From: a virus
Length of the DNA: 64,000 nt
IMG/VR virus record: IMGVR_UViG_3300037419_000871
Direction: 5' to 3' (one strand)
In this document: piece by piece, positions 1-64,000 of the stretch
Layout: each line of letters begins with the position of its first letter
Position numbering within the stretch: the stretch's first letter is position 1
Made by a program: the position numbers and the translations under genes
The notes under the pieces: model-generated
The model's input: only the letters and a program-made list of their open reading frames with translations
Database searches by the model: none
Told to the model about the DNA's origin: nothing

Positions 1-379
1 GCGAGAAGAACGTCAGGACGCTGGAAGGCTCGCTACGGGAGATCGCGCGCAAGGGCGGGCCGCAGGATTTGTGTCAGGCGGCGCAACTGACCTCGTGGGC
101 CGTGCCAACGACGCGGGATCACAAGGACGGATCGAGCATCGGGACGGTCGAGACGAACGGCCTGCTGGGTCGGCAGGTATGGCTTTCTTCTCCGACGCCG
201 ACTGGATCCTCTGCACAGACGGAAAAGCCAGGCCAATTGAACCCGGCACATTCCCGTTGGCTCATGGACAGCCCAACCGCGTGGGACGACTGCGCGCCTA
301 CGGCAACGCGATGCACCGCGCGAAAATCACACAATTCATCCTCGCGGCCGACGAAGCAATCAGGAGCGCAGCAGAATGA
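1..379 (+). CDS. C-terminal part of phage C5 cytosine DNA methyltransferase (5' truncated by window edge)
   Basis: Frame 2 open from base 2; [25 protein letters not shown] followed by motif-X-like [11 protein letters not shown]. Confidence 0.8.
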
Positions 380-383
380 CTGA
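3..383 (+). CDS. Alternative-frame ORF nested in the C5 MTase (motif IX-like beta polypeptide), 5' truncated
   Basis: Frame 3 open from base 3: [44 protein letters not shown]. Confidence 0.6.
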
Positions 384-2391: not shown

Positions 2392-2614
2392 TCTCGACGT
2401 TGGTGACGATTGCTGGTGCTACGTTGGCAACCACAAAGGCAAGAAAAGTAAGGGAACGATTATCGCTATCGTGCGTCTTCCGGGTTACGCCAAGCCGCAT
2501 TACATCGTTGAGATACCAACGAGCGTTGATCCCCTGCTGGAAGTGCGCGACGGATTCTCAATCAGCGACAGCGAGAAGAAGCATATCGGCTTTCTTCGGA
2601 GGGCAGGCCGATGA
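2378..2614 (+). CDS. hypothetical protein (SH3-like beta fold possible)
   Basis: 78 aa ORF in operon. Confidence 0.6.
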   Translation: MQWIDLDVGDDCWCYVGNHKGKKSKGTIIAIVRLPGYAKPHYIVEIPTSVDPLLEVRDGFSISDSEKKHIGFLRRAGR

Positions 2615-3124
2615 GCGCGGATTTGATGGACCGCCTCCGTCAAGACGCCGAGATGCTTCAAGACGGACCGCAGAGCAACCTTACGAAGCTATGGCACAGC
2701 GAAGTCGTCAAAGACGCCGCGAAGGATTGCAAAGAAGCCGCCGCGCGCATCGAAGCGTTGGAGGCGCTTGCCGCCGAGCGCCTTGAGAATTACCGAAAAG
2801 GAATTTCGGTAGTCCGCGACCTCAACATGCGGCACAAGGCGGAAGTCGAAGCGTTGGAGGCGGAGAACGCGAGGCTGCGGGCCGCAACCGATCGTATCGC
2901 TCGCGTTGATGACAGTCAACGCAAAACAACTCAGAACGTCAATCGAGAACAACGCCGTGCTCAACACGCGCGCCGAGAAGGCAGAGAGCGCGTTGGCCGA
3001 GGCGGTCGGCCACCTCCGTAAATGGGTTGGATGGTGTGAAGATTGGGCGTCGGGGAAGTCACACCCGGCTGACGATCTAAAGGCCGCCCGCGCATTTGTT
3101 CAGCAACACGAGGGGAAGAAGTAG
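2611..3124 (+). CDS. coiled-coil hypothetical protein(s): ORFs 2611-3021 and 2906-3124, possibly one frameshifted gene
   Basis: ARIEALEA / AENARLRAA coiled coil in frame 1 continued by RAEKAESALAEA in frame 2. Confidence 0.5.
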
Positions 3125-3304
3125 ATGATTGGCTGGGTCGCATTCATTCTCGCGATGATGGCAATCGGCGGTAATCCGTCGCAAACGAAGATGGATCAAA
3201 TCGACGCGCGTATCACTCGGCTCGAACGGCAGAAATGCACAATGATTGCCGTGAGCACACCCTCCGGTAACAAGACAATCTGCGCGTTGGATTTCCAGCC
3301 ATGA
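3125..3304 (+). CDS. small membrane/secreted hypothetical protein (59 aa)
   Basis: MIGWVAFILAMMAIGG hydrophobic N-terminus; read by hand, below track cutoff. Confidence 0.55.
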   Translation: MIGWVAFILAMMAIGGNPSQTKMDQIDARITRLERQKCTMIAVSTPSGNKTICALDFQP

Positions 3305-3702
3305 CGCACCAACGCGCAATCGAGGCCGGGGCGAGGGCTGATGCGCTGTTCGACGGTCGCACTTGGCTGGCGATGCCGAAATCTGAACGCGCTCGCTATC
3401 TTGAGCGGTCGCGCAATCACCTCACCGCCCTCGCTGCGGAAGGGCTCGTCGTGGTGCCGAAGGAGCCGACAGAGGCGATGTGGGGCGGATTAGCGCGTGA
3501 TCTAGTCATGTGGAATCGCGGCTTGCCAAACCAGTACGGCAGCACGCTTTACAAGCACCTTCGCGCATGTGGTCGAGAAATTCCCGATTGGCTACTGGCT
3601 GAGATACCAGACATCGATCACACGCCGCCGAAGGGAACGGTTGCGGTCTGCATCTACCGCGCCATGATCGCAGCCGCTCCTCCTGTCTCGGAGGGGAAGT
3701 GA
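3301..3702 (+). CDS. hypothetical phage protein
   Basis: VVPKEPTEAM...YRAMIAAAP motif typical of phage early proteins. Confidence 0.7.
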   Translation: MTHQRAIEAGARADALFDGRTWLAMPKSERARYLERSRNHLTALAAEGLVVVPKEPTEAMWGGLARDLVMWNRGLPNQYGSTLYKHLRACGREIPDWLLAEIPDIDHTPPKGTVAVCIYRAMIAAAPPVSEGK

Positions 3703-3855
3703 ATGGCGCGCTTTGCTGCTGTCCTCATTGGCTTAGTGTTTTCGAACTTCGCCTATCAGTATTTCACCGGTCAAAATTGGCCGCTCGCAATTGATCGTTC
3801 GATGTTCCAATTCACGGCGGTCGCGGTATGTGCGCTATTGACGCGCACCTCATGA
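3703..3855 (+). CDS. small membrane protein (50 aa)
   Basis: Two hydrophobic stretches, GGAGGGG RBS, coupled to next ORF. Confidence 0.5.
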   Translation: MARFAAVLIGLVFSNFAYQYFTGQNWPLAIDRSMFQFTAVAVCALLTRTS

Positions 3856-4124
3856 CCACATCCCCCTCACTCGTAAAGGCTGGGCCGATGGACGACGATC
3901 ATCTGCGCCATATATGCAAGCTCGCGTCGATTGCGGTTGGCGGACTTCGTGACCGCGAGGACTGGCTAACGTATGTGCGCGATTGCAGCGACTCCGAACT
4001 GGTCGATCATCATACGTGTCTGTCGATCCTATCGAAGGCATTTGTCGAGCTGATGAACCGAGCCGACATGAAACCAAAGTTCAGCTACCCCGCCGCCACC
4101 CCCAAGACGGAGGTGGGGAAGTGA
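3852..4124 (+). CDS. hypothetical protein
   Basis: ATGA-coupled ORF ending before Xis. Confidence 0.6.
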   Translation: MTTSPSLVKAGPMDDDHLRHICKLASIAVGGLRDREDWLTYVRDCSDSELVDHHTCLSILSKAFVELMNRADMKPKFSYPAATPKTEVGK

Positions 4125-39857: not shown

Positions 39858-42116
39858 TCACACCGCCGCTCTCGCCGGCCTCACAAACTTGATTTTCCTC
39901 CCCACATGCCGCGGATCGTCCTCGTCCACCTCGGCCAAGATGCCGTTGGCGATCCACGAATCCAGCGCCGCCTTGATGCGCCGTTTTTCCGGCGTCATGG
40001 CGCGGCTGGTTTCTATGTCGGCGCCCATGGCTTGCGCCAGGACGTAGCCGGCCCAATCGGATGACTGATCGCTCGCGCGGCAGTTCTGATTAGCCAGCCG
40101 CACCAGCACCTCGGCCCGCACGTCGTCTGGAATGGCCGCCGCAACGGCATCCTTGGACGGCCAGTTCCACTCCGTCACGACGCCGGCATGGTCTTGCGGC
40201 TTCAGGATGCCGGTGCCATTGCCTAAAGGCACGCTCTCCATCTTGCGCCAATGCTGACTGTTGTCGAGCTTGGTCAGATTGGCCTTGCCGTAGTGGATCC
40301 AGAAGTAGCTAAACCTGTCGTTCGGGTCTAAGCCCGCCTTGGTGGCCTGATCCTCTGTCATGCGGTTTAGCACCCGCACGGAACGCGCCGCACCAATCAG
40401 CGACACGGCTCCGCGGGCATCCTCCACGGTGGCCTCGCGGTCGGACATTTTGCGCAGGTGGTGTACCACGTCGACGGCGCAGTTGGTCATGTCCGCGATT
40501 TGCGCCCACAGCTTGGCCACCTTGTCGATCGCGCCGTTGTCGTTCTCATTGACGTGGTGCGTCGACACGAACGGGTCAATGATCATGACGTCGATGCCGT
40601 GGCGGCGGATTTGCTCCACGACAGCCTCGACAACCGGCTTGTTGATCTTCAGGCCGGTTTTCTTATCCTCCTCCATGATGACAAGTTCCTGCTCGCGTCC
40701 GGTGTCGAGGAACAGGCGGCCGGCGATGTCATCAGGCGCAAGATTGTAATGGAGGCATGCGGCCATGATCCGCCGGTCCATTTCGTCGCGCGGATCCTCG
40801 GCGTTGAACAGCCAGCAAGACAGGCGCGTGGGTGGCTTTGTGCCTGCCAGCGGCTTGCCTGACACCATAGAAAGCGCCTCCACGATACTGTTGGACGTTT
40901 TCCCCAAGCCACCCGGCGAGACGGTTACAGACACGAATTTGCGGATGTAGTGTGTACCGAACGCGAACTCTCTGCGGGGTAGTTTCTTGGGATCTTTGTA
41001 GGTGAACGGCGTGGCTGTGAAGGCTGGGCGCTCGGGCGCTGGAGTGTTGTCTTGCGTAAGCGATACGAACTCGGGGTCGGCGCCGTGGTTGCCCGGCTCT
41101 GGCGCGTGGTCAGCGCCGGGTGCTGCGGGCAGCGCAACGTCGTGCGCGCCGGTTTTGGCGGTTGCACTGGCCTTCCGTAGCCCGTTCTCAATCATCTTGG
41201 TAATGTCGATCAGCCGCGTGTTGTCGCCACGATCCGGCGCCGGGATATCGCGCGGTTGCTGGATGCCCGCAGCCAACCCGTTCTCGATTGTCTTGCAGCA
41301 CCGCGCCCAATCACGGCCCCAGCCGCGCGCAACGTCCTGCAGCAAGGCGCGCGCTTCGGATTCCGACAAAGCGCCGGCACCGACGAATGTGCCGAGGCAG
41401 AACGAAGCGTCGTTGAGAGAGTTGTTCCTCGACCCCATAGGCGCGCCGGCAAGTTCCGCCAACTCACGGTCAACCGCCGCGTTGACGTATGCGCTGTTGG
41501 TGTGGGAGTTGCCCGCGCGGATGGTTGTTTGCTCAGGCGCGCGTCGCACGACCAAGTCTAGCAACCACGCAGGCGCATCAGCGATGTCCGGTATCTTGTT
41601 GGCGTCGGGTTGCTCTACCCATTTGTAAGCGCGGCCATCAGACATGACGCTGCCGGCCGCGCAGACGTACCCGCCTTCCGAACGCAAATCCACGCCCGCG
41701 CCGAGGTTGCCGCGGTTGCGTGTGCCGTCGACGTATTTAAACAGGTAGTGCATTCCACCGTTGGGCGATTTAACGCGCGCGGTCTCTGGCAGCGGCCCGT
41801 GCTCCGCTTCCATCTCATGCAGCCACTCGAACCCATTTGCGGCTCCGGGTTTGTTGTCCACGTCGAGGACGAAGAACCCAGCATCCTTGCCGGTGGGAAT
41901 GCCTACGGCCGCATCCGGCCAGTCGTTGAACCAACGCTTGACGATGTGCGCAAACCGCGTTGCCCCGCGGAAGCCGTTTGATGTAAGAGGCGTTTTCTCG
42001 CCAAGCGTTGTCACCTCACCTGTATACGGGTCGGTGGTTTCCTCCGCGCGGCTGCGGCACGGGAAGACCTTCAGGCCCTGCGAGACGTAGAAGTTGGCGA
42101 GTTCAAGCGGCGTCAC
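39858..42116 (-). CDS. bifunctional primase-polymerase fused to AAA_25 (RepA-like) helicase
   Basis: VFPC..KTP, VLDVD, HYLF, DLRSEGGYV; SPGGLGKT Walker A, IIDPF, VVHHLRK. Confidence 0.92.
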   Translation of the reverse strand: MTPLELANFYVSQGLKVFPCRSRAEETTDPYTGEVTTLGEKTPLTSNGFRGATRFAHIVKRWFNDWPDAAVGIPTGKDAGFFVLDVDNKPGAANGFEWLHEMEAEHGPLPETARVKSPNGGMHYLFKYVDGTRNRGNLGAGVDLRSEGGYVCAAGSVMSDGRAYKWVEQPDANKIPDIADAPAWLLDLVVRRAPEQTTIRAGNSHTNSAYVNAAVDRELAELAGAPMGSRNNSLNDASFCLGTFVGAGALSESEARALLQDVARGWGRDWARCCKTIENGLAAGIQQPRDIPAPDRGDNTRLIDITKMIENGLRKASATAKTGAHDVALPAAPGADHAPEPGNHGADPEFVSLTQDNTPAPERPAFTATPFTYKDPKKLPRREFAFGTHYIRKFVSVTVSPGGLGKTSNSIVEALSMVSGKPLAGTKPPTRLSCWLFNAEDPRDEMDRRIMAACLHYNLAPDDIAGRLFLDTGREQELVIMEEDKKTGLKINKPVVEAVVEQIRRHGIDVMIIDPFVSTHHVNENDNGAIDKVAKLWAQIADMTNCAVDVVHHLRKMSDREATVEDARGAVSLIGAARSVRVLNRMTEDQATKAGLDPNDRFSYFWIHYGKANLTKLDNSQHWRKMESVPLGNGTGILKPQDHAGVVTEWNWPSKDAVAAAIPDDVRAEVLVRLANQNCRASDQSSDWAGYVLAQAMGADIETSRAMTPEKRRIKAALDSWIANGILAEVDEDDPRHVGRKIKFVRPARAAV

Positions 42117-44031
42117 GGATCACCTGTGTCTGGTTGTTGTTATTGTCGTTGGCGGCGGTGGGCGGCATCAGCCGCTGTATGCGCCGTCCTAGCCACGCGA
42201 AAAGCGGCACTGCCCAACTATTCCCCAGCGCCTTGTAGCGCGGACCGTCAGCCGCCAAGCGCGCAACGTCCGCGCGCGTCAGGTTCTTCGGATTACCGCG
42301 GGCCATGTACTTGACCCAATCGGCGTCGAGTTTCGCTTCGCTGACCTTGTTATACGGAATCGCGGTGTAGTCCGGCGACCACCAACGGCCGGCGTCGTCG
42401 AGCCACGCGCCGGGGTAGTCGGGACTGCATAAGAATTGAAACCCCTGCAGACGCTCGCATTCGCGCGGCGTGAGACGTCGGACGGCGGAGGTTAGCACAT
42501 GCGGCTTATCCCCACCGCCTGAGCTTGCGCGCAGCGCGGTGGCAACGTCGCCACCTAGTTCTGCCGTCGCGCCGCCTTCACGGCCACGGAGGGCGACGGT
42601 GCAGACCGCCATAGGATCGTGACGTCGCAAGGTTGGTGATAATTCTGCCGACGCGTCCGCTCCGAAGTCTACAGACTGGAACGCAATCGCAGGCATCACA
42701 CCCGCATTAGCATGGCTCGTGGTGTGTCCGCCGGCGCGTAGAGTTGGCGCTAGGTCGGTGGAAGCGTCGGCGCCGTAGTCCTTGGCGCTAAACGCGATGA
42801 CGTGAGGCGGGCGAGAGGGGCGGTTCTCCCCTTCGGCCCGCAACGTCCCAGCCACGTCGTCTTGCTTCCACCAACCTTGTCCAGTCTCGTGCATGACCGT
42901 TACAATCGGCGTGCCGCGACCCGTGCCGTCTTCCGATCCGTCCGCACCTTCGGCTTTCAACGCGTGACTGATAGGACCAGTGACGCCTACCGCAACCATA
43001 GTCGTCGACTCGTAGTCCTGCGATGAACCCTCGCGCGTTGTGTCGCAACGCGCGATCTCGGGTGCGTAAGCGACAGCAGAACGTGAGTGCCCGTCAGTCG
43101 TTAGAGTTGGTACGATTTCTTTTTCAAGTGTTACCATCTCTTCGTGTGCAGACTTTCGACCGTTGGGCCGCCCCTTATTCATATGAAGAAAGCAAGCCAC
43201 AACCGGACCATGCCCGCGCGTATCTCCGGTACGCTCTACTCCCCGGCCACTTGCCGTAAGGCTTGGTGCAACTGCGGCGGCAATTCCTTGCCCCGTTTCT
43301 CTGCTCGGCGGAGAATCCCGGCGCACGCTTTCTGGCTCAAAAAGAACCGCTGCGGGATCGGCCCCGTTTCCAAAATCTGCGACAACGATGACACGCTTGC
43401 GTCGTTGGGCCAGTCCGAAGTATTGGGCGTCGAGGACACGCCACGCCGCACGTCCTTTGGGTCCAGCGACCATACCCGCGTTAGGCCAGCGACGTCCCTT
43501 TGGTGGTGGTAGGGCATCTGCTGCGCCCACAAGTCCGGCGAGGAAACATCCGAAGGCGTTGTCTTTAGTTGAGAGAACTCCGGGTACATTTTCCCAGACT
43601 GCATTCCGAAGTCCATTGCCATTTGTCGTGCCATTGCCGGCGAGTTCATGAGCGAGCCTTACGAATTCGAGAGAAAGATTACCGCGCGCGTCGTCTAATG
43701 ACTGACGCAGACCGGCAACACTAAACGCCTGGCATGGCGTGCCGCCACACAGGATATCAACACGGCTAAGCGTAGCTGTATCGATCTTGGTGAAGTCGCC
43801 AAGGTTAGGTACACTTGGATAGTGATGCGCGAGCACCGCAGACGGAAACTTCTCAATCTCCGAAAATGCCACGGCCTGCCACTGCGGCCACGCTACGGAC
43901 GCCGCTTCAATGCCAGAGCATACGCTCAGGAAGCGCAGCGCCCCTGCGTTAGCCGGTGCGCAATGACCGCCACAATAATCTCCGCGGTCGTATCGTGCAG
44001 CGTCTGGACAATTATCATTCGCGTACTCCAT
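42103..44031 (-). CDS. C5 cytosine DNA methyltransferase with long repeated TRD region
   Basis: SVCSGIEAA (I), GGTPCQAFS (IV), WENVPG (VI), QRRKRV (VIII), LTPRECERLQGF (IX), YKALGNS (X). Confidence 0.93.
   Translation of the reverse strand: MEYANDNCPDAARYDRGDYCGGHCAPANAGALRFLSVCSGIEAASVAWPQWQAVAFSEIEKFPSAVLAHHYPSVPNLGDFTKIDTATLSRVDILCGGTPCQAFSVAGLRQSLDDARGNLSLEFVRLAHELAGNGTTNGNGLRNAVWENVPGVLSTKDNAFGCFLAGLVGAADALPPPKGRRWPNAGMVAGPKGRAAWRVLDAQYFGLAQRRKRVIVVADFGNGADPAAVLFEPESVRRDSPPSRETGQGIAAAVAPSLTASGRGVERTGDTRGHGPVVACFLHMNKGRPNGRKSAHEEMVTLEKEIVPTLTTDGHSRSAVAYAPEIARCDTTREGSSQDYESTTMVAVGVTGPISHALKAEGADGSEDGTGRGTPIVTVMHETGQGWWKQDDVAGTLRAEGENRPSRPPHVIAFSAKDYGADASTDLAPTLRAGGHTTSHANAGVMPAIAFQSVDFGADASAELSPTLRRHDPMAVCTVALRGREGGATAELGGDVATALRASSGGGDKPHVLTSAVRRLTPRECERLQGFQFLCSPDYPGAWLDDAGRWWSPDYTAIPYNKVSEAKLDADWVKYMARGNPKNLTRADVARLAADGPRYKALGNSWAVPLFAWLGRRIQRLMPPTAANDNNNNQTQVIRDAA
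43236..43649 (-). CDS. alternative-frame ORF nested in C5 MTase
   Basis: 137 aa, same strand, shifted frame; SDWPNDASVSSLSQILETGPIPQRFFLSQKACAGILRRAEKRGKELP. Confidence 0.6.
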   Translation of the reverse strand: MNSPAMARQMAMDFGMQSGKMYPEFSQLKTTPSDVSSPDLWAQQMPYHHQRDVAGLTRVWSLDPKDVRRGVSSTPNTSDWPNDASVSSLSQILETGPIPQRFFLSQKACAGILRRAEKRGKELPPQLHQALRQVAGE

Positions 44032-44399
44032 CACCACGGAATCTCCCTGCTCACAATCTCCCGCATGCTGTCGGCGTATGCGATAAACCCCAGCCGCCAG
44101 AACGTCGCCCACTCCTCTTCCGTCAACGTGGCAAGGTCTGTCTTTTGTATGGAGTCAAGGTATTCTCCGCCTGCGTTGCCGCCGTCTTCCAAGGCGCGTG
44201 TTTCGAACTCGTCCAGTTGCTTGCGTGGCATGTGATAGACCTTTGGTAATTTGGAGCGGACGCCGTTGTGTGTGTCGTCCAGGCATTCCCAGCACCCCCA
44301 TTTGATGGGTGCGCGGTCGTGCGGGGCATAGCCGATGTTGTCGTGGCGGCGTTTGCAGATGAAGCAAACGCCAACAAGTTCGTGGGCTAGGCTGGTCAT
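44031..44399 (-). CDS. CxxC-containing conserved phage protein (DUF6511-like)
   Basis: CFICKR...CWEC; GGEYLDSIQKTDLATL. Confidence 0.7.
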   Translation of the reverse strand: MTSLAHELVGVCFICKRRHDNIGYAPHDRAPIKWGCWECLDDTHNGVRSKLPKVYHMPRKQLDEFETRALEDGGNAGGEYLDSIQKTDLATLTEEEWATFWRLGFIAYADSMREIVSREIPW

Positions 44400-62841: not shown

Positions 62842-63085
62842 CGCAAGCGACATGCCTGCGAAGATTTGGTGGGAGGCGGGCTTCGCAGGGGCGAGCGACG
62901 TCGCTCCGGTATCGAAGGACTACACCCCCTACATCCGCGCCGATCTGGTCGAGCCTCTGGTAGAGGCGCTGCGGAAGGCAGAGGAACTTTATCAGGTCGG
63001 CTTGTTGAACGCGCCTGATAACCTTGCCGATGAAGTCGTCACGCTCCGTCGCGCCGCCCTCTCATCCTGGGAGGCCGGGCAATGA
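62834..63085 (+). CDS. hypothetical protein
   Basis: MPAKIW...YIRADL motif. Confidence 0.65.
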   Translation: MANASDMPAKIWWEAGFAGASDVAPVSKDYTPYIRADLVEPLVEALRKAEELYQVGLLNAPDNLADEVVTLRRAALSSWEAGQ

Positions 63086-63624
63086 CCACCGGCCTCCACC
63101 AATCTCAACTCGCACCAGCCGAGAACAAATTCCATGTCGGGAACGGATCCGATGGGAAGCATTATTGGCTGACCCCACCTGATGTGTATGCCGCGCTCGA
63201 TGCCGAATTTTCTTTCGACTTCGATCCGTGTCCGTATCCACTACCACACGGCTTCGATGGCCTGACCTGCGAATGGGGCCGGTCGAATTACGTCAATCCA
63301 CCATTCGGCTCGATCATCCACGATGGCAAGAAGAAAGGCCCGACAGCTTGGGTCCGCAAGGCCATTGCCGAACAGCAAAAAGGCAAGCGCGTCGTTCTGG
63401 TCTACCCGGTCGATAAGTGGGTGCTCATGCTGATGAAGGCGATCCTTGGCGATCACGCTCAGGTCCGAAACCTTGGCGACGTGAAGTGGCTGGCGACGGA
63501 GGACGGATCCGCCGGTAAGGGCACCGGGCGGCATATTGCTTGTTTCATTCTGGAGCCGGACGCCGCCATCCTCAAGGCACGTCAGACCGCCGCGCAACCG
63601 GCCAAGCAAGCGGAGGCGCGGTAA
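63082..63624 (+). CDS. phage Dam-like N6-adenine DNA methyltransferase
   Basis: HYWLTPP, FDFDPC, DGL..EW, YVNPPF. Confidence 0.85.
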   Translation: MTTGLHQSQLAPAENKFHVGNGSDGKHYWLTPPDVYAALDAEFSFDFDPCPYPLPHGFDGLTCEWGRSNYVNPPFGSIIHDGKKKGPTAWVRKAIAEQQKGKRVVLVYPVDKWVLMLMKAILGDHAQVRNLGDVKWLATEDGSAGKGTGRHIACFILEPDAAILKARQTAAQPAKQAEAR

Positions 63625-64000
63625 GTGAATGGACGCGCGCTCTACAATGAAATCGACGAGTTCGCAGCCGACTGGCTCGAAAACCTCATTCGTGCAGGGC
63701 TCATTGCCCCTGGACGAGTTGAGCGGCGATCGATCGTTGACCTCACGGCAGACGATCTTGCCGGATACTGGCAAGTCCATCTGTTCGCCGGCATTGGAAT
63801 CTGGTCAGCAAGCCTTCGCGATGCCGGACAGCGAGACGACGCGCCGTGGTGGACAGCATCCTGCCCGTGCCCGCCGTTCAGTGCAGCCGGAAAGAAAAAG
63901 TCCTGCCCCTCATGCGGCGGCACAAACCCTGTCCCGCATGTTGGACGAACTGGCCACTTCGTATGCTGCGTATGCGGCCACGACTGGCTTGCCGACGACA
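63625..64000 (+). CDS. C5 cytosine DNA methyltransferase N-terminus (3' truncated; absent from ORF track)
   Basis: GTG 63625: YNEIDEFAADWL, HLFAGIG (I), SCPCPPFS (IV); frame open to window end. Confidence 0.88.
   Translation, partial: MNGRALYNEIDEFAADWLENLIRAGLIAPGRVERRSIVDLTADDLAGYWQVHLFAGIGIWSASLRDAGQRDDAPWWTASCPCPPFSAAGKKKSCPSCGGTNPVPHVGRTGHFVCCVCGHDWLADD

Follow-up and report, generated by a model that had tools for sequence, protein, structure and literature searches.

The IMG/VR virus record IMGVR_UViG_3300037419_000871, analyzed here as a stretch of 64,000 nucleotides (the window), carries at its two edges the parts of a gene in which two long open reading frames (ORFs), here termed alpha and beta, lie over each other on the same strand. 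The window is of phage origin, as indicated by PHROG matches to terminase, tape measure, tail fiber, primase and helicases. We consider it quite probable that positions 1-383 and 63625-64000 together form one orphan C5-cytosine methyltransferase (MTase) locus of this phage, which specifies two polypeptides from overlapping frames. Its features are as follows, TRD denoting the target recognition domain:

63612-63616, + strand: Shine-Dalgarno sequence GGAGG, 8 nt before the alpha GTG and 12 nt before the beta ATG
63625-64000, + strand: 5' part of alpha, with GTG start at 63625, running off the window end (from the ORF list and tblastn)
63629-64000, + strand: 5' part of beta, with ATG 4 nt past the alpha GTG, 124 codons without stop, +1 relative to alpha
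2-379, + strand: 3' part of alpha (window frame 2), with R/G-rich linker, motif X and C-terminal helix; stop codon TGA at 377-379
3-383, + strand: 3' part of beta (window frame 3), with TRD-like region, motif IX-like block and basic tail; stop codon TGA at 381-383
3-202, + strand: apparent beta-selected zone (TRD), where the alpha reading is an open, disordered linker, as judged from relatives
203-310, + strand: apparent doubly constrained overlap, with the alpha run-up to motif X (DADW...) over beta motif IX
231-293, + strand: beta motif IX-like block (alignment A3; residue counts in 80 relatives)
299-310, + strand: alpha motif X core YGNA (G272/N273 invariant in alignment A1)
311-379, + strand: apparent alpha-selected zone after the motif X core

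A sequence-only reading of this DNA had noted that frames 2 and 3 are both open from the window start to about position 380. This is indeed the case, with the motifs quoted in it present and the frames closed by the two TGA codons listed above, while frame 1 carries stops over positions 1-383. It had further confined the gene to 1-383, which has to be revised, as the 5' part is found at 63625-64000: alpha residues 46-135 of the closest relative, L004, match 63625-63894 with 62% identity (tblastn, E 1.5e-31). Frames 2 and 3 are open up to the window start because the gene was cut there by linearization of the record. The window ends cannot be joined directly in frame, and comparison with L004 indicates that at least ~80 codons are missing, the missing middle amounting to ~0.25-0.4 kb with alpha motifs VI-VIII and the beta LTWK block. 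As the gene ends lie at opposite edges of the window and the middle is missing, the record corresponds to a circularly permuted phage genome of slightly more than 64 kb. The terminal 44-mer of the window has no exact match in IMG/VR.

The 5' part of alpha reads, in order, MNGRALYNEID, motif I (QVHLFAGIGIW), motif IV (SCPCPPFS, within SCPCPPFSAAGK) and a zinc-ribbon-like CxxC...CxxC insert. This insert, CPSCGG...CCVCG (within 63865-64000), is lacking in all fetched relatives; L084-L086, close relatives of the 5' part of the gene, are likewise without it. The GGAGG at 63612-63616 probably serves the alpha and beta starts alike. L004 has the same 'start-A-ATG-G' layout, with the beta ATG 4 nt past the alpha start and a common Shine-Dalgarno sequence. 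The 5' part of beta appears to be a passenger leader overlapping alpha motifs I-IV; in relatives, this part of the gene has alpha-type periodicity and beta-frame stops are depleted.

The analysis of the family is based on 80 loci fetched from IMG/VR and 3 phage records, that is, 83 related loci. Both frames are open in all 83, and in the third frame a stop typically comes within 7 codons; thus interruption of frame 3 by stops in homologs, a possibility that the sequence-only reading had raised, was seen in none. In the tblastn comparison of both frames suggested in it, either frame as query found identical sites in over 200 genomes of cultured phages. The phage records that were read each annotate a single one of the overlapping frames: alpha in Bordetella phage PHB09 and in Escherichia phage K-01, beta in Komagataeibacter phage phiKX1. 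Beta is not a short peptide; across the family its ORF spans ~250-390 codons and starts near the 5' end of alpha. In Escherichia phage K-01, whose G+C content is 55%, a 270-codon beta ORF lies inside a 314-codon alpha. The beta fragment of the window matches its best relative, L004, with 64% identity (117 bits), and the alpha fragment matches the same DNA with 49% identity (95 bits). Alpha matches the PHROG family phrog_363 (E 7e-7) and beta matches phrog_31772 (E 1e-15) and phrog_1008, which are three separate families, all labelled 'DNA methyltransferase'. Given the PHROG matches of both frames, both have been called as genes in cultured phages. The protein clusters called number at least 5248 for the beta frame and at least 8000 for the alpha frame. 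Locus L009 has, in addition, a second short alpha-like methylase (1478-2224, 249 aa) directly after a normal alpha/beta pair; its linker is minimal, and it lacks a beta frame.

Alpha is readily recognized as the catalytic part of a C5-MTase. Its profile aligns with residues 71-173 of M.HhaI, comprising motifs IV-VIII, with an E-value of 3e-18, and two alphas of relatives recover PF00145 with 42.8 and 59.9 bits (cut-off 22), only profile positions 60-161 of 324 being covered. The two window fragments on their own, which are too short for this, have no match in Pfam. Motifs VI (ENV) and VIII (QxRxR) are present in all relatives (alignment A1) and lie outside the window in this gene. Motif X, a GN[AS]V helix, is at the C-terminus of alpha (window 281-313); its G and N do not vary in A1. 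Between motifs VIII and X, alpha has neither a TRD nor a motif IX on the same chain, a low-complexity linker being found there instead. The sequence-only reading had stated that frame 2 has the motif X end of an MTase and no motif IX, and this holds, with YGNA at 299-310 and alignments to PF00145 and M.HhaI restricted to motifs IV-VIII. When alpha was folded alone, a confident core of residues 1-174 was obtained that matches the N-terminal halves of type II C5-MTases; the alpha subunit of M.AquI is among these structural matches (rank 25). The predicted local distance difference test (pLDDT) values of alpha alone are below 50 for the linker (175-231) and for residues 254-272.

For the selection on the two frames, the window by itself offers weak evidence: synonymous shuffles that kept the beta residues left alpha open in 3% of trials, and those that kept the alpha residues left beta open in 75%. 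The strength of the case comes from the relatives, across which codons were shuffled in 59 non-identical loci. With beta residues kept, 3.9 alpha-frame stops are expected from motif VIII to the gene end (mean P of none 0.02), and none was observed in 59 of 59 loci. With alpha residues kept, 1.5 beta-frame stops are expected over motifs I-VIII (P of none 0.2); none was observed in 50 of the 59, the remaining 9 having beta-frame stops near the 5' end. In the third frame, used as a control, 6.93 stops were observed and 6.89 simulated.

Substitution rates at alpha codon positions 1/2/3 were obtained from 14 independent pairs, with a sliding window on a larger set. Over motifs I-VIII they are 0.126/0.095/0.273, which is the periodicity of alpha. 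Over the TRD they become 0.276/0.181/0.168, which is the periodicity of beta, as alpha position 1 is beta position 3. In the overlap of motifs IX and X they fall to 0.109/0.053/0.126, with both frames constrained, and after GNA the alpha periodicity returns (0.154/0.172/0.28). Accordingly located in the window, positions 203-310 have low and equal rates at alpha position 3 and beta position 3. The stretch of the gene that is least conserved at all three codon positions lies just past motif VIII. Relative to expectation, the diversity of synonymous alpha codons is 0.8-0.93 early in alpha and drops to 0.28-0.61 (with one block at 0.73) from ~70 codons before motif VIII. Over this low-diversity stretch beta reads ARQAKE...ALQSSLxSRL...LGSTLYxLTWKxxxTPSGR...LRAS. 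Exactly under the beta motif IX block the values are 0.16, 0.12 and 0.30, several four-fold degenerate alpha codons having zero diversity, and right after YGNA the value is 0.84. These patterns point to a division of the gene into three kinds of zone, namely an alpha-selected zone (motifs I-IV), a beta-selected zone (TRD) and doubly constrained zones, window 203-310 being one of them. The earlier suggestion that the TRD region is encoded twice is not borne out, as only beta is under protein-level selection there and alpha is merely kept open.

A natural separation of the two frames is seen in phiKX1 and three IMG/VR loci, wherein an HNH endonuclease ORF lies between the motif IX and motif X blocks and the overlap is partly duplicated. 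The HNH ORFs (L003 2292-2810; L028 3274-3780; L054 3409-3915; L062 3289-3774) are in the beta frame, after the beta stop. In the first copy of the overlap the beta sequence LNPSHSRWLMGxPxAWD is kept and the alpha reading is degenerate (xxQxxVDG...); in the second copy the alpha sequence FPLxxGxxxRVGRLRxYGNA is kept. Alpha remains open through ~170 codons of the HNH gene. From the motif copies retained after the insertion it follows that each motif is maintained by its own frame and that alpha must be read through to motif X. The insert may be a homing element or an intron. The HNH ORF ends in a relic of the beta tail, so that three genes lie on one DNA.

Many relatives also have a recognizable start for beta inside alpha. 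In 26 loci, the Arg-Ser of the alpha sequence VDERSIEDV is coded AGG/CGG AGY, which forms (A)GGAG. A beta-frame ATG follows 8 nt downstream in 26 of 26 of these GGAG loci (as GAx GAT GTx), as against 10 of the 32 loci without GGAG (Fisher p 1.2e-8). The codon AGG is used for this Arg in 19 of 58 loci and at a frequency of 6% elsewhere in alpha (p 7e-10). Other loci have GGA-Gxx before a GAT-GAx ATG one turn upstream.

Beta itself contains the pattern LxPxxxx[RW]L[MQ]G[FLY]P, which resembles motif IX (RRLTPRECERLQGF) of a canonical C5-MTase encoded in the same genome. A complex was modelled from L004 alpha and residues 100-286 of beta, with a 49-row alignment for each. Its score was 0.92, and the best of 3 controls reached 0.00; the mark used for this score is reached by 58 of 80 solved complexes and by 2 of 110 mismatched pairs. 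At least 82% of contacts are common to the runs, with a partner pLDDT of 67 or more. In the model, beta 246-275 (motif IX) contacts alpha 254-290 (motif X), 143-161 (motif VIII) and 12-26 (the N-terminal helix), and beta 105-152 lies on alpha 122-161. Alpha residues 254-278 are inside the confident interface. The pass of the complex model may in part reflect likeness to solved single-chain C5-MTases, and it would speak for compatibility of the two chains rather than for binding.

Based on these observations, we propose that alpha would be translated continuously, and would comprise the catalytic half with motifs I-VIII, an unselected but open linker, the DADW...RVGRLRxYGNA segment and the motif X helix. 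Beta would be translated in the +1 frame from its own ATG, which here would be the one 4 nt past the alpha GTG with the common Shine-Dalgarno sequence, and in many relatives the one preceded by the internal Shine-Dalgarno sequence in the VDERSIEDV codons. It would begin with a short unselected leader, followed by a helix-hairpin block (LGSTLYxLTWK...), a variable W-P-T-P-containing recognition region and the motif IX-like block. Beta is predicted to dock on alpha such that motif IX packs on motif X, motif VIII and the N-terminal helix, completing the canonical C5-MTase fold, and would thereby supply target recognition. We infer that both proteins are made, that they bind together and are both needed for methylation; the copy in the window, with LMDSP in its motif IX, may be active. 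The proposal of the sequence-only reading that this is a split, overprinted C5-MTase, as in the two-polypeptide enzyme M.EcoHK31I, is supported in its core by stop depletion in both frames, the switch in periodicity, the frozen synonymous sites, the Shine-Dalgarno sequence with ATG, the complex model and the lack of a slippery site. Motif IX may be supplied by the other frame, as claimed there: the pattern and the modelled packing on motifs X and VIII favor this, but no significant profile or PDB match was found.

A number of observations weigh against this reading. Folded alone, beta gives a poor model with a mean pLDDT of 58. It has no significant match to Pfam or to PDB chains, be it as single sequence, as full profile (A2) or as motif IX profile (A3). 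Comparison of A2 with the canonical MTase of the same genome (hhalign) returned a probability of 0.1, showing no relation. In the ESM Atlas, the look-alikes of beta are unnamed viral clusters only. Since the profile and PDB searches were negative, the identity of the beta motif IX rests on the short pattern and the modelled position. Comparison of the window with its 12 nearest relatives by codon position is saturated and uninformative in 1-202 (at most 73% DNA identity), and the middle of the gene of this phage lies outside the window. The position of the beta start varies across the family. In alpha, motif IV reads PCPPFS here and PCQPFS in the family, that is, PCP in place of the usual PCQ. 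Finally, the motif IX core of the window beta is LMDSP, as compared to the consensus LMG[LYF]P. The residue after WLM in the 80 relatives is G in 69, A in 5, R in 3 and S, D and K in 1 each, followed in every case by L, Y, F or I and never by S. Thus, a D-S core in this copy stands against G-[LYFI] in relatives, and this beta may be impaired.

These last differences lend themselves to an alternative in which the family is dual-coding but the present copy is decaying or altered, with an enzyme that is weak or inactive or a beta that binds differently. The sequence-only reading, too, had considered decay on account of the DS; we regard this alternative as unlikely. D at the G position has one precedent in the 80 relatives and S at the following position has none, and the pair falls in the modelled interface, where beta 259-261 touches alpha 62, 271 and 276. 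Motif IV, with PCP rather than PCQ, is followed by the extra zinc-ribbon-like insert, and the second, canonical C5-MTase of the same phage could make loss affordable. Nevertheless, all invariant beta residues (L, P, W, L, M, P, W and C) are kept, the 12 residues preceding the changed block and the 9 following it match the consensus exactly, and both frames are free of stops over 250 visible codons. Relatives can have A, R, K, S or D in place of this G. The change from G to D in beta is a change from GGG to GGA that is silent in alpha. Alpha itself reads GQPN instead of GAPA at this spot, and the changes in the two chains could be paired.

In another alternative, one chain would be made by programmed frameshifting, with alpha (motifs I-VIII) shifting +1 into beta (TRD and motif IX) and then -1 back to alpha (motif X). 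Joining the selected zones of both frames does restore the canonical C5-MTase order of motifs I-VIII, TRD, IX and X, with a plausible spacing from IX to X. Yet stops are absent from alpha throughout the TRD zone, and from beta upstream of its conserved part, neither of which frameshifting needs, and beta has a Shine-Dalgarno sequence and ATG of its own. The constraint on beta starts ~70 codons before the end of alpha motif VIII, so that the same DNA is read in both frames, and upstream of motif IX the alpha frame has a conserved block, DADWxxCxDGK. The least conserved stretch of the gene, at all codon positions, is found just after motif VIII. Slippery heptamers of the type X_XXY_YYZ are lacking from window 1-383, and of 74 relatives only 1 carries such a heptamer close to motif IX. 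Sequence and model evidence together make two polypeptides much more likely than frameshifting, because beta has its own Shine-Dalgarno sequence and ATG built from rare alpha codons, a slippery site is lacking and the complex model reaches 0.92; we consider the single frameshifted chain very improbable.

That the second frame is untranslated, its openness and conservation being a by-product of alpha conservation, high G+C or nucleotide-level constraint, is scarcely credible: beta openness in the window alone is expected by chance given the alpha residues (P 0.75) and beta conservation over alpha motifs I-IV largely mirrors alpha, but the most variable codon position in the TRD zone is the third of beta and not that of alpha, alpha synonymous sites are frozen exactly at the beta motifs, a beta ORF of 270 codons is found in E. 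coli phages with 55% G+C, its Shine-Dalgarno sequence and ATG are made of rare codons, and the beta motif is kept in the HNH-separated overlap though the alpha reading degenerates.

To our knowledge, a two-frame nested methylase layout had been shown before only for M.EcoHK31I. That enzyme, from E. coli HK31 (Lee, Kam and Shaw 1995), is a C5-MTase of two polypeptides, as described in PMC2836561 and PMC3404938. Its small chain is encoded wholly inside the large gene in another frame, the large chain having motifs I-VIII as well as X, and the nested chain motif IX (PMC2836561, PMC3404938). The phage family resembles it in the second ORF nested in another frame and apparently also in the split of motifs IX and X between the chains. 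However, the TRD of M.EcoHK31I is in alpha and its beta has only motif IX (PMC2836561, PMC3404938), whereas in the phage family the TRD is selected in beta and the alpha linker is disordered. The phage beta, with ~250-390 codons starting near the alpha 5' end, also differs from that of M.EcoHK31I, as compared by published description. Moreover, unlike M.EcoHK31I, the phage gene is an orphan methylase beside a Dam-like gene, with no sign of a restriction-modification system.

Another point of comparison is M.AquI, which is likewise split within the variable region, motifs I-VIII being on one chain and the recognition region with motif IX on the other (PMC3404938). In M.AquI, however, motif X stays with motif IX on the small subunit and the genes are not presented as nested (PMC3404938), whereas in the phage family motif X belongs to the large chain and the ORFs share almost their entire length. 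Canonical C5-MTases (PF00145, M.HhaI and the one at 42106-44112 of this genome) have the same overall motif set, but alpha lacks motif IX and a folded TRD. Our literature searches found no description of this layout in phages, which is not proof of absence. What appears new relative to M.EcoHK31I, as judged from sequence comparisons, is the recognition region in beta, the linker in alpha and the wide spread in phages, and the arrangement is not unique to this window.

With somewhat less assurance than for the locus itself, we lean to the view that this very large phage and prophage family, with thousands of clusters, consists of obligate alpha/beta heterodimers. Their ORFs would overlap on the same strand over 250-390 codons, and the specificity subunit, with the TRD and motif IX, would be encoded +1 relative to the catalytic gene. 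The ratio of alpha to beta would depend on competing starts or on an internal ribosome-binding site made of rare codons. If this is true, these would be among the longest and most widespread same-strand overlaps in bacterial viruses, and would have been systematically mis-annotated; indels in the recognition module would change specificity, while the tolerant linker of the other frame would only be lengthened. If both proteins are made, thousands of genes labelled 'DNA cytosine methyltransferase' or 'hypothetical protein' would be halves of one two-subunit enzyme. Methylome and anti-restriction studies in which alpha is expressed on its own would then yield false negatives, and prediction of specificity should use the +1 frame. 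Hosts of such phages include Escherichia, Klebsiella, Salmonella, Burkholderia, Pseudomonas, Rhodobacter and others. Gene callers that bar long same-strand overlaps would keep missing one of the partners. The family is also a natural case for the study of two proteins on one DNA, with sharply bounded passenger, selected and doubly constrained zones. Tools for targeted methylation could, furthermore, draw on its naturally split enzymes, as they have on M.EcoHK31I (PMC2836561).

The locus is flanked by the following genes:

63082-63624, + strand: Dam-like N6-adenine methyltransferase with NPPF motif (PHROG phrog_111, E 6.5e-17), its TAA abutting the alpha GTG
376-1233, + strand: downstream ORF of 285 aa, its ATG overlapping the alpha stop (ATGA), with AGGAG at 362-366

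The downstream ORF has no family match in PHROG, and the ATGA overlap together with the AGGAG suggests that its translation may be coupled to that of alpha. The pairing of adenine and cytosine methylase genes is also seen in several relatives, and in L075 the beta frame continues in frame into a Dam-like domain (ORF 2530-4011). Elsewhere in the window, the second C5-MTase (42106-44112, - strand) is a canonical single chain of 669 aa with motifs I, IV, VI and VIII, a repeated xPTL(T/R) region, motif IX (RRLTPRECERLQGF) in frame and motif X as ALGNSWAVP.

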